DNA from: Neolecta irregularis DAH-3
Lineage: Eukaryota
Reading direction: 5' to 3'
DNA: 38,726 nucleotides
Assembly (NCBI GenBank): GCA_001929475.1
Contig: LXFE01000294.1
Location: 1-38,726, forward strand
Shown here: positions 3,452 through 4,399 of the stretch, in pieces
Numbering within the stretch: the first letter of the stretch is position 1
Layout of the letters: every line of letters starts with the position of its first letter
Position numbers and translations under genes: made by a program
The notes under the pieces: generated by a model
What the model was told of the DNA's origin: nothing
The model's database searches: none
Seen by the model: the letters and a program-made list of their open reading frames with translations, nothing else

Positions 3452-4399
3452 TTACAAATCTGCATCGTCTTCGTCTAAACAGTCAGCAAAGACACCAAAG
3501 AGGTCATACCGGGCAGCGGCTGGGCCTGAGCATGTTCCAGTTCCTGTTGATATTGTGCAAGAGTTTCAGGTGAAATTTGGACCTCTGGAGGTGCCAATGC
3601 AGGACTGGCGACAAATTCCAAAGATGAGTTTCCAACGAGCTTTCTTGCTAACCAGAGGAAAGGTTTCTCGAAATTGTAATTAGACTTTGCAGAGATATCG
3701 TAATATTGGAGATTTTTCAGATCCATTAGCCTATCTTACGCTATGGGAGGTACCTTTCTATGGAAAGTAATCGACTTGGCCTTGACCTTTCGATCTTTAA
3801 TATCGACTTTATTACCGCAGAGAACGATCGGTATGTTTTCGCATACACGAGTAAGATCCTTGTGCCAGGTCAAGACATTCTTGTAGGTAATTCGAGCAGT
3901 CACGTCAAACATAATAATCGCACATTGTCCTTGAATATAGTAACCTAAAGAATTCGTCAACGTGTACACTGACGTGGAAATCAAAATACCATCTCTCAGA
4001 CCTTCCAGGTTAGTAAACAGATATCACATCGAATCATACCTCCGAATTTCTCTTGTCCAGCGGTATCCCAGGTGTTGAAACAAATTTGTCCGAAATTGGT
4101 GTGGAAATTGATAGGATGGACTGGAACATCAACACCTGGTTTCGCTTCTCCTGTCGCGAAATACCTTCCACCCCGAGCGTAGCAATATACTTCTTCTCGA
4201 ATTCGCCAGTCAAATGTCGTTTAACGAAGGTTGTCTAAACAAATAAAGATCAGCCGCCTTGCCCTGTGAATTTTTCACTGGTGATAAGTCTACCTTTCCA
4301 GTACGTGCTAGAGAATTAGAATTGATGCAATTTTCGCGGTGGCATATCTCCATCGCCGACAAGGACGAGCTTGAAAGTCGGGACTTCTTGCTGGGCCAT
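3452..4399 (-). CDS. GSP1: Ran GTPase (Gsp1/Spi1), 8 exons
   Basis: [47 protein letters not shown]...[20 protein letters not shown]...NKVD...[30 protein letters not shown]...DEDDADL*. Requires an AT-AC intron (4305-4347) and a GT-TG intron (3718-3753). Confidence 0.97.

Follow-up and report, generated by a model that had tools for sequence, protein, structure and literature searches.

A 36-nt GT-TG intron beside an AT-AC intron in the Ran/Gsp1 gene of Neolecta irregularis

The Ran/Gsp1 gene and its neighbours

The window analysed here, i.e. the whole 38,726-nt stretch of contig LXFE01000294.1 of Neolecta irregularis DAH-3 (assembly GCA_001929475.1), carries on its minus strand the Ran/Gsp1 gene (3452-4399) of this early-diverging ascomycete (Taphrinomycotina). 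Based on the exon model and its translation, the gene consists of eight exons and seven introns (43, 59, 44, 38, 45, 36 and 35 nt for introns 1 to 7), and its open frame of 648 nt encodes 215 amino acids (Table 1). The translation is similar to Ran over its full length and ends in an acidic C-terminal tail; it includes the Ran G motifs GDGGTGKT, DTAGQE, NKVD and SAK. In a phmmer search of PDB, exon 6 and exon 7 matched Ran/Gsp1 chains with E-values of 1.5e-34 and 1.5e-31, respectively. Five introns have GT..AG ends, while intron 1 ends as AT..AC and intron 6 as GT..TG, and the preliminary description of this DNA was right in assigning two different non-canonical introns to one gene, the AT-AC intron being confirmed by a contig joint at 4236-4348. 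Both micro-exons (11 and 12 nt) are each flanked by two short introns and were present in spliced contigs. The intron load of the gene is seven in 648 nt of coding sequence; a mean intron density of 1.08 per kb is given for Taphrinomycotina (PMC8476143).

Table 1. Coordinates of the Ran/Gsp1 exons, the two non-canonical introns and the splice signals of intron 6
Feature	Position	Strand	Basis
Ran exon 1	4399-4348	(-)	exon model
Ran intron 1, 43 nt, AT..AC; start ATATGC, CTAAT 11 nt before end	4347-4305	(-)	exon model and contigs
Ran exon 2, micro-exon, 11 nt	4304-4294	(-)	exon model and spliced contigs
Ran exon 3	4234-4165	(-)	exon model
Ran exon 4	4120-4040	(-)	exon model
Ran exon 5, micro-exon, 12 nt	4001-3990	(-)	exon model; contig joints 3945-4034 and 3945-4038 with letters between
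Ran exon 6, end ...FHRK	3944-3754	(-)	alignment with human Ran 79-141; contig pieces stop at 3754
Ran intron 6, 36 nt, GT..TG, phase 0	3753-3718	(-)	sequence, exon model, contig joint 3717-3754
5′ splice site GTACCT after AAG	3748..3753	(-)	sequence
In-frame TAA upon retention of intron 6	3738-3736	(-)	translation of the retained form
Branch-point-like GCTAAT; presumed branch A 3726, 8 nt before intron end	3725..3730	(-)	motif scan; predicted
3′ splice site CTG (-3 C; -2 T, base 3719; -1 G)	3718..3720	(-)	window sequence; X1 contig (unspliced DNA) identical
Ran exon 7	3717-3510	(-)	alignment with human Ran 142-210; contig pieces begin at 3717
First AG (within AAAG) past the branch motif, at +33 in exon 7	3685..3686	(-)	sequence
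Ran exon 8	3474-3452	(-)	exon model

Three further genes of the window supplied introns for comparison. The gene upstream of Ran, which we take to be CorA-like, has two contig-verified introns. A 1174-codon open frame (20267-23791) shares 98% identity with the protein 'Helicase swr1 [Neolecta irregularis DAH-3]', the next match being Saitoella with 65-66%; by threading the public protein on the window, the Swr1 gene was placed at 19796-25090 on the minus strand with eight introns of 34-42 nt, two of which (23802-23764 and about 20438-20397) lie in frame within the long open frame. A TM9SF/EMP70 gene was recognized by a Pfam match at about 700-2950 on the minus strand, and its junctions, read against three distant homologues, gave nine predicted GT..AG introns and one predicted GC..AG intron. 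The latter is a probable 38-nt intron at 2691-2654 (minus strand), whose borders, read from homology, could be shifted by 1-2 nt and still fit the same mRNA. Among the 27 window introns inspected, eight of them from an annotation restricted to canonical sites, non-AG ends occurred only in Ran (two), so that this small sample does not suggest a pervasively relaxed spliceosome. At the contig end (roughly window 1-430), each strand has open frames rich in Ala/Arg/Gly/Pro in several frames, which sets this segment apart from the remaining window, and it looks G+C-rich.

Intron 6 in the DNA and in transcripts

Exon 6 alone aligned with residues 79-141 of human Ran and 81-143 of yeast Gsp1, and exon 7 alone with 142-210 and 144-212, respectively. 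The two exons thus abut on both proteins with neither gap nor overlap, and therefore exactly 3753-3718 must be removed. The preliminary description had reasoned from the letters that the conserved HRKKNLQYY requires the excision of a 36-nt GT..TG segment and that its retention meets an in-frame TAA; the minus strand indeed reads GTACCT...CTG over 36 nt, exon 6 runs to human Ran 141 with exon 7 starting from 142, and translation of the retained form runs into the TAA. It had also dismissed the three AGs inside the intron (ends 3741, 3735 and 3731) as lying upstream of GCTAAT and useless, and upon translation each of them produces a stop or a frameshift; every detail given there is correct. No AG is present between the branch motif and exon 7, and the next one, 41 nt from the branch, stands in a poor AAAG context; used as an acceptor, this AG (3686-3685) would cause an in-frame loss of 11 residues, and no joint at this place was listed among the contigs aligned to the window. 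Sequence and transcripts are read directly here and no statistical pattern is involved, so that chance is not at issue.

Several other solutions were considered and rejected. A canonical 87-nt alternative (3753-3667), which came from an ab initio GT..AG scan using branch motifs and open flanks (151 candidates, too noisy as a census), would delete 17 residues and is without contig support. A stwintron does not fit, since 36 nt is too short for two introns of 32-59 nt, the range in this genome, and no internal GT..AG pair leaves a terminal AG. An antisense GT-AG transcript is ruled out, because the reverse complement of GT-TG is CA-AC; and template switching by reverse transcriptase is argued against by the single nucleotide shared at the two borders. 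Folding of intron 6 with its flanks was not better than that of shuffled sequences (z -0.23; 79 of 200 shuffles equalled or surpassed it).

Transcript evidence was drawn from assembled contigs of three runs, namely X2, a run filed as 'DNA?' that contains spliced, RNA-derived contigs, and X3 and X4, two root metatranscriptomes from two studies with one contig each (834 and 903 nt, 90-95% alike). To judge from the sequences, untranslated ends included, the X3 and X4 contigs are from a close relative. The joint 3717-3754, which skips the 36 nt, was found in contigs of all three transcript-type runs, and the skipped ends, CA..AC on the plus strand, correspond to GT..TG on the gene strand. In X2, the joint is carried by a contig of 715 nt (depth 818.6, 99% identical, no piece having more than one other letter) that also joins 3474-3510 and 4120-4165 and includes both micro-exons. 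No X2 contig covered intron 6 at a likeness of at least 90%, and the X2 depth inside the intron was zero, the bin depths of 575.2 and 663.7 being exactly what 818.6 gives when scaled to the exonic part of the bin. Neither an alternative acceptor nor a retained-intron form of intron 6 was found among the X2 contigs, which can miss minor forms. The predicted splicing at 3754^3717 was seen in X2, X3 and X4 as the sole assembled form.

The placement of the joint is free by one letter, so that GG..CT borders, one base off, would fit it equally. Such borders lose both terminal Gs as well as the AAG|GTA context of the other introns; and a junction that arose from reverse transcription or assembly is opposed by its restoring a perfectly conserved protein and by its occurrence in three runs of at least two studies. 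Shifted borders or an artefact are thus next to negligible as explanations.

On the DNA side, the run X1 yielded an unspliced contig of 1622 nt that covers 3000-4389 and differs from the window only at 3226; at 3718-3720 it has the letters of the window with a word depth of 410, and no contig with an alternative letter at 3719 was listed. Base 3719, for which the preliminary description had asked for verification, therefore stands, though X1 is perhaps the sample behind the window and counts as a second assembly rather than as independent DNA. Position 3679 is A in the window and X1 and G in X2, X3 and X4 (on the gene strand AAT becomes AAC, which is synonymous), and the X2 contig has one further difference from the DNA within 4034-4120. 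Thus, the RNA of X2 and the DNA represent different genotypes. Over 3754-4449, X1 also contains spliced-looking Ran-like contigs: one of 584 nt (depth 917, ~90% alike), whose match ends exactly at 3754, and one of 3039 nt (depth 402), in which 39 letters replace exons 2-3, a form also seen in X2. These could derive from another organism, a processed copy or chimeras.

The genotype difference bears on the alternative that the species normally has CAG, that the spliced contigs stem from CAG alleles, and that the T at 3719 arose in the sequenced isolate as a private or rare variant or through a consensus error. The RNA source could carry CAG, given its differences from the DNA at 3679 and one more place; fixed GT-TG introns are very rare elsewhere, so the prior probability of a private mutation that is tolerated is not much lower; and the case emerged from a very large scan for odd features. 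Against this, the X1 contig agrees with the window at considerable depth, the rest of the Ran gene is flawless, and, Ran being an essential gene, a living carrier must splice intron 6 unless the genome, of which this one contig was analysed, has a second copy. Under this alternative, too, the TG functions as an acceptor. We regard a private variant or consensus error as rather unlikely. Three points are established: the DNA reads CTG, transcripts carry precisely this junction, and no AG solution gives Ran. The otherwise flawless gene and the essentiality of Ran suggest that the TG-bearing allele is itself spliced at 3754^3717. That a TG works as the acceptor of intron 6, for which no AG could substitute, in a gene that also has an AT-AC intron is well supported, though not proven at the allele level; the stronger wording of the preliminary description, namely a constitutive TG acceptor, is not supported, as it rests on contigs, and their RNA genotype differs from the DNA at 3679.

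Splice signals and the choice of the 3′ end

To place the signals of intron 6, 17 introns were compared, comprising nine contig-verified ones (seven of Ran and two of the neighbouring gene) and the eight of Swr1, which were obtained by threading the public protein on the window and so come from an annotation that allows canonical sites only. The donors have hardly more in common than GTA, with which 14 of the 17 start, intron 6 included. Near the 3′ end a YTRAY-like motif serves as the predicted branch site, and in intron 6 a CTAAT lies 8 nt before the end, which agrees with the earlier placement of the CTG acceptor about 8 nt past the branch A. This spacing of 8 nt between the presumed branch A and the intron end is the commonest among the 17; it recurs in Ran introns 3, 4, 6 and 7 (four of the nine contig-verified introns) and in three of the eight Swr1 introns. 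The other presumed spacings were 6, 7, 11, 12 and 15 nt, and some introns had no clear motif.

We conclude that 3753-3718 is probably a real intron of the U2 type, removed by the major spliceosome, that ends in CTG instead of YAG, most likely through a tolerated A-to-T change, and whose 3′ site may be set by distance. The AAG|GTA donor and the GCTAAT branch motif are ordinary for the Neolecta genome. Exon ligation would take the site at the usual distance, 8 nt from the presumed branch A, despite the U at -2, with the G at -1 retained; in spliceosome structures, the last G of the intron pairs with the first. The likeliest origin of the CTG would be a single A-to-T change in a former CAG, which the organism has tolerated. 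With 17 introns and branches guessed from motifs, the comparison is faintly suggestive of a site taken by position with the U at -2 tolerated.

Removal by the minor (U12-type) spliceosome, with the 3′ end again defined by its distance from the branch, would account for the fixed short distance from the branch motif and for the AT-AC intron in the same gene. The U12 consensus is [AG]TATCCTT at the 5′ site and TCCTTAAC at the branch. The donors GTACCT and ATATGC are unlike the former, and the branch motifs are CTAAT rather than the latter, so that the sites here, GTACCTCC and GCTAAT, fall outside the U12 type. Moreover, convincing minor introns are described neither from Ascomycota nor from Basidiomycota, and the minor snRNAs are reported lost in Ascomycota (PMC10639083); since the host is an ascomycete, intron 6 is attributed to U2-type splicing, and a role of the minor spliceosome is highly improbable.

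A further-reaching reading is that the 3′ sites of short Neolecta introns are set mainly by a ruler of ~8 nt from the branch A, with the AG partly dispensable and TG the sole acceptor in an essential, highly expressed gene. This is an unlikely, tentative proposal. If true, it would break the human-derived rule that TG acceptors never act alone, and intron 6 together with the AT-AC intron and the two micro-exons would point to relaxed end recognition or to a gene-specific tuning of Ran output. One intron of the TM9SF gene (about 1962-2005, minus strand) has two AGs after its CTGAC; by homology, the second (TAG, 12 nt) is used, and the first (AAG, 7 nt) gives a stop. Here the nearer AAG (7 nt) appears to be passed over in favour of the TAG (12 nt), so the spacing by itself does not determine the splice site.

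The preliminary description had further proposed a splicing-efficiency control on Ran dosage, which is unsupported, nothing speaking for or against it here. In its explicit form, the TG site would be deliberately inefficient, and either retention with the stop at 3738-3736 or slow exon ligation would throttle the amount of Ran. The presence of two rare intron types within one seven-intron gene is in its favour, as is the slowing of exon ligation by non-AG acceptors in yeast. On the other hand, X2 has no retained-intron contig, the spliced contig reaches the maximum depth of the stretch covered (818.6 versus 241.1 for the neighbouring gene, contig depth being a poor measure), no regulated isoform is seen, and any intron with an in-frame stop would serve equally. 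Contigs drop rare variants and isoforms and allow neither a spliced-to-retained ratio nor a splicing efficiency to be obtained. Such a throttle appears quite improbable. At only 36 nt and with its presumed branch 8 nt before the end, intron 6 is a compact natural substrate on which to study site choice in exon ligation.

Intron 1, other Ran genes and known GT-TG introns

[quoted passage not shown] It has the appearance of a U2-type AT-AC intron, here in an ascomycete: it keeps the local donor pattern with G1 changed to A (ATATGC versus GTATGA) and has YAC for YAG. The terminal bases of introns are known to covary, an A first going with a C last, and this class accordingly changes both of them, whereas Ran intron 6 differs only at position -2 and keeps both terminal Gs. 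In Drosophila, Table 3 of PMC4528330 has an entry of '4 AT-AC (U2)'. Averages for fungi (PMC7072748, Table 1) are 98.715% GT-AG, 1.009% GC-AG, 0.019% AT-AC and 0.257% others. With such fungal frequencies, independence, the 5,546 genes reported for Neolecta (PMC5309816) and seven introns each, about 0.01 genes per genome would be expected to have both rare types. Their co-occurrence in Ran is suggestive, but no conclusion is drawn from it, as the case was selected from a very large scan for oddities.

In other organisms, TG acceptors were described for 36 human genes (PMC2374985), with GNAS and TSPYL2 among the examples (PMC4176328), and for 23 annotated GT-TG introns of Drosophila, 22 of which have a similar alternative splice (PMC4528330, Table 3). 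The earlier statement that TG acceptors are rare and mostly alternatives to an AG is in line with these sources (PMC2374985, PMC4528330). In fungi, the manually curated set of Ganoderma lingzhi lists 22 GT-TG among ~92,000 introns (0.024%; PMC11590231, Table 1), while long reads from S. pombe meiosis include GT-TG among novel, probably aberrant, junctions (bioRxiv 10.1101/045922), and the fungal 3′ splice site is portrayed as more flexible than the 5′ one (PMC11590231, PMC7072748, bioRxiv 10.1101/045922). GT-TG introns are thus already known in fungi, flies and humans, and Ran intron 6 is a further member, unusual in standing alone.

The animal introns and Ran intron 6 are alike in having a GT donor, TG for AG, ordinary major-spliceosome signals and transcript support. 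They differ in that the animal ones nearly always stand beside an alternative AG, whereas Ran intron 6 has no usable AG in the 28 nt that follow it, the first one coming at +33, and the AG 13 nt upstream of its end precedes the branch motif and breaks the frame. A TG-AG tandem acceptor was rejected on these grounds, the class needing an AG within ~28 nt; the upstream AGs lead to stops or frameshifts, and no alternative joint occurred in the contigs, which can miss minor forms. With the fungal tallies Ran intron 6 shares the short fungal intron and the TG end; those tallies are genome-wide and silent on whether TG is the only acceptor or the gene essential, whereas Ran is a single curated case beside a second rare intron. 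The TG is apparently the sole acceptor of an intron in an essential gene, of which the human surveys contain no example and the fly survey at most one.

A scan of metagenomes gave 80 Ran loci, the best of them 82% identical in exon 7, and no close relative was among them. At the site of intron 6, 77 of the 80 read straight through FHRK/FNRK-KNLQYY, many of them short and probably transcript contigs, and one starts at the match and is not judgeable. Two have a short GT..AG intron within one codon of the Neolecta site, namely L036 between R and KK (phase 0) and L058 inside the second K codon (phase 1). These introns are canonical and not at the identical position, and both loci are only 72-77% identical in exon 7, so they are not from sister species. 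By our reading of the table of matching segments, about 30 of the 80 loci have introns at other places of the gene. The positions of Neolecta introns 2, 3 and 7 recur in some fungal loci; intron 6 has near neighbours only.

The main text of the Neolecta genome paper (PMC5309816) has no occurrence of 'intron' or 'splic'. When near-identical proteins to Ran exon 7 and exon 6 were sought among proteins of 112-2000 aa or more, nothing exceeded 87% and 94% identity, respectively, a negative search that is weak evidence; the Swr1 protein of the same contig is present in the searched collection. The public proteins of this contig may therefore lack Ran or include it in truncated form, and the two odd introns may have kept it out of the public gene set. 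Annotation pipelines limited to GT-AG and GC-AG can in this way lose core genes.
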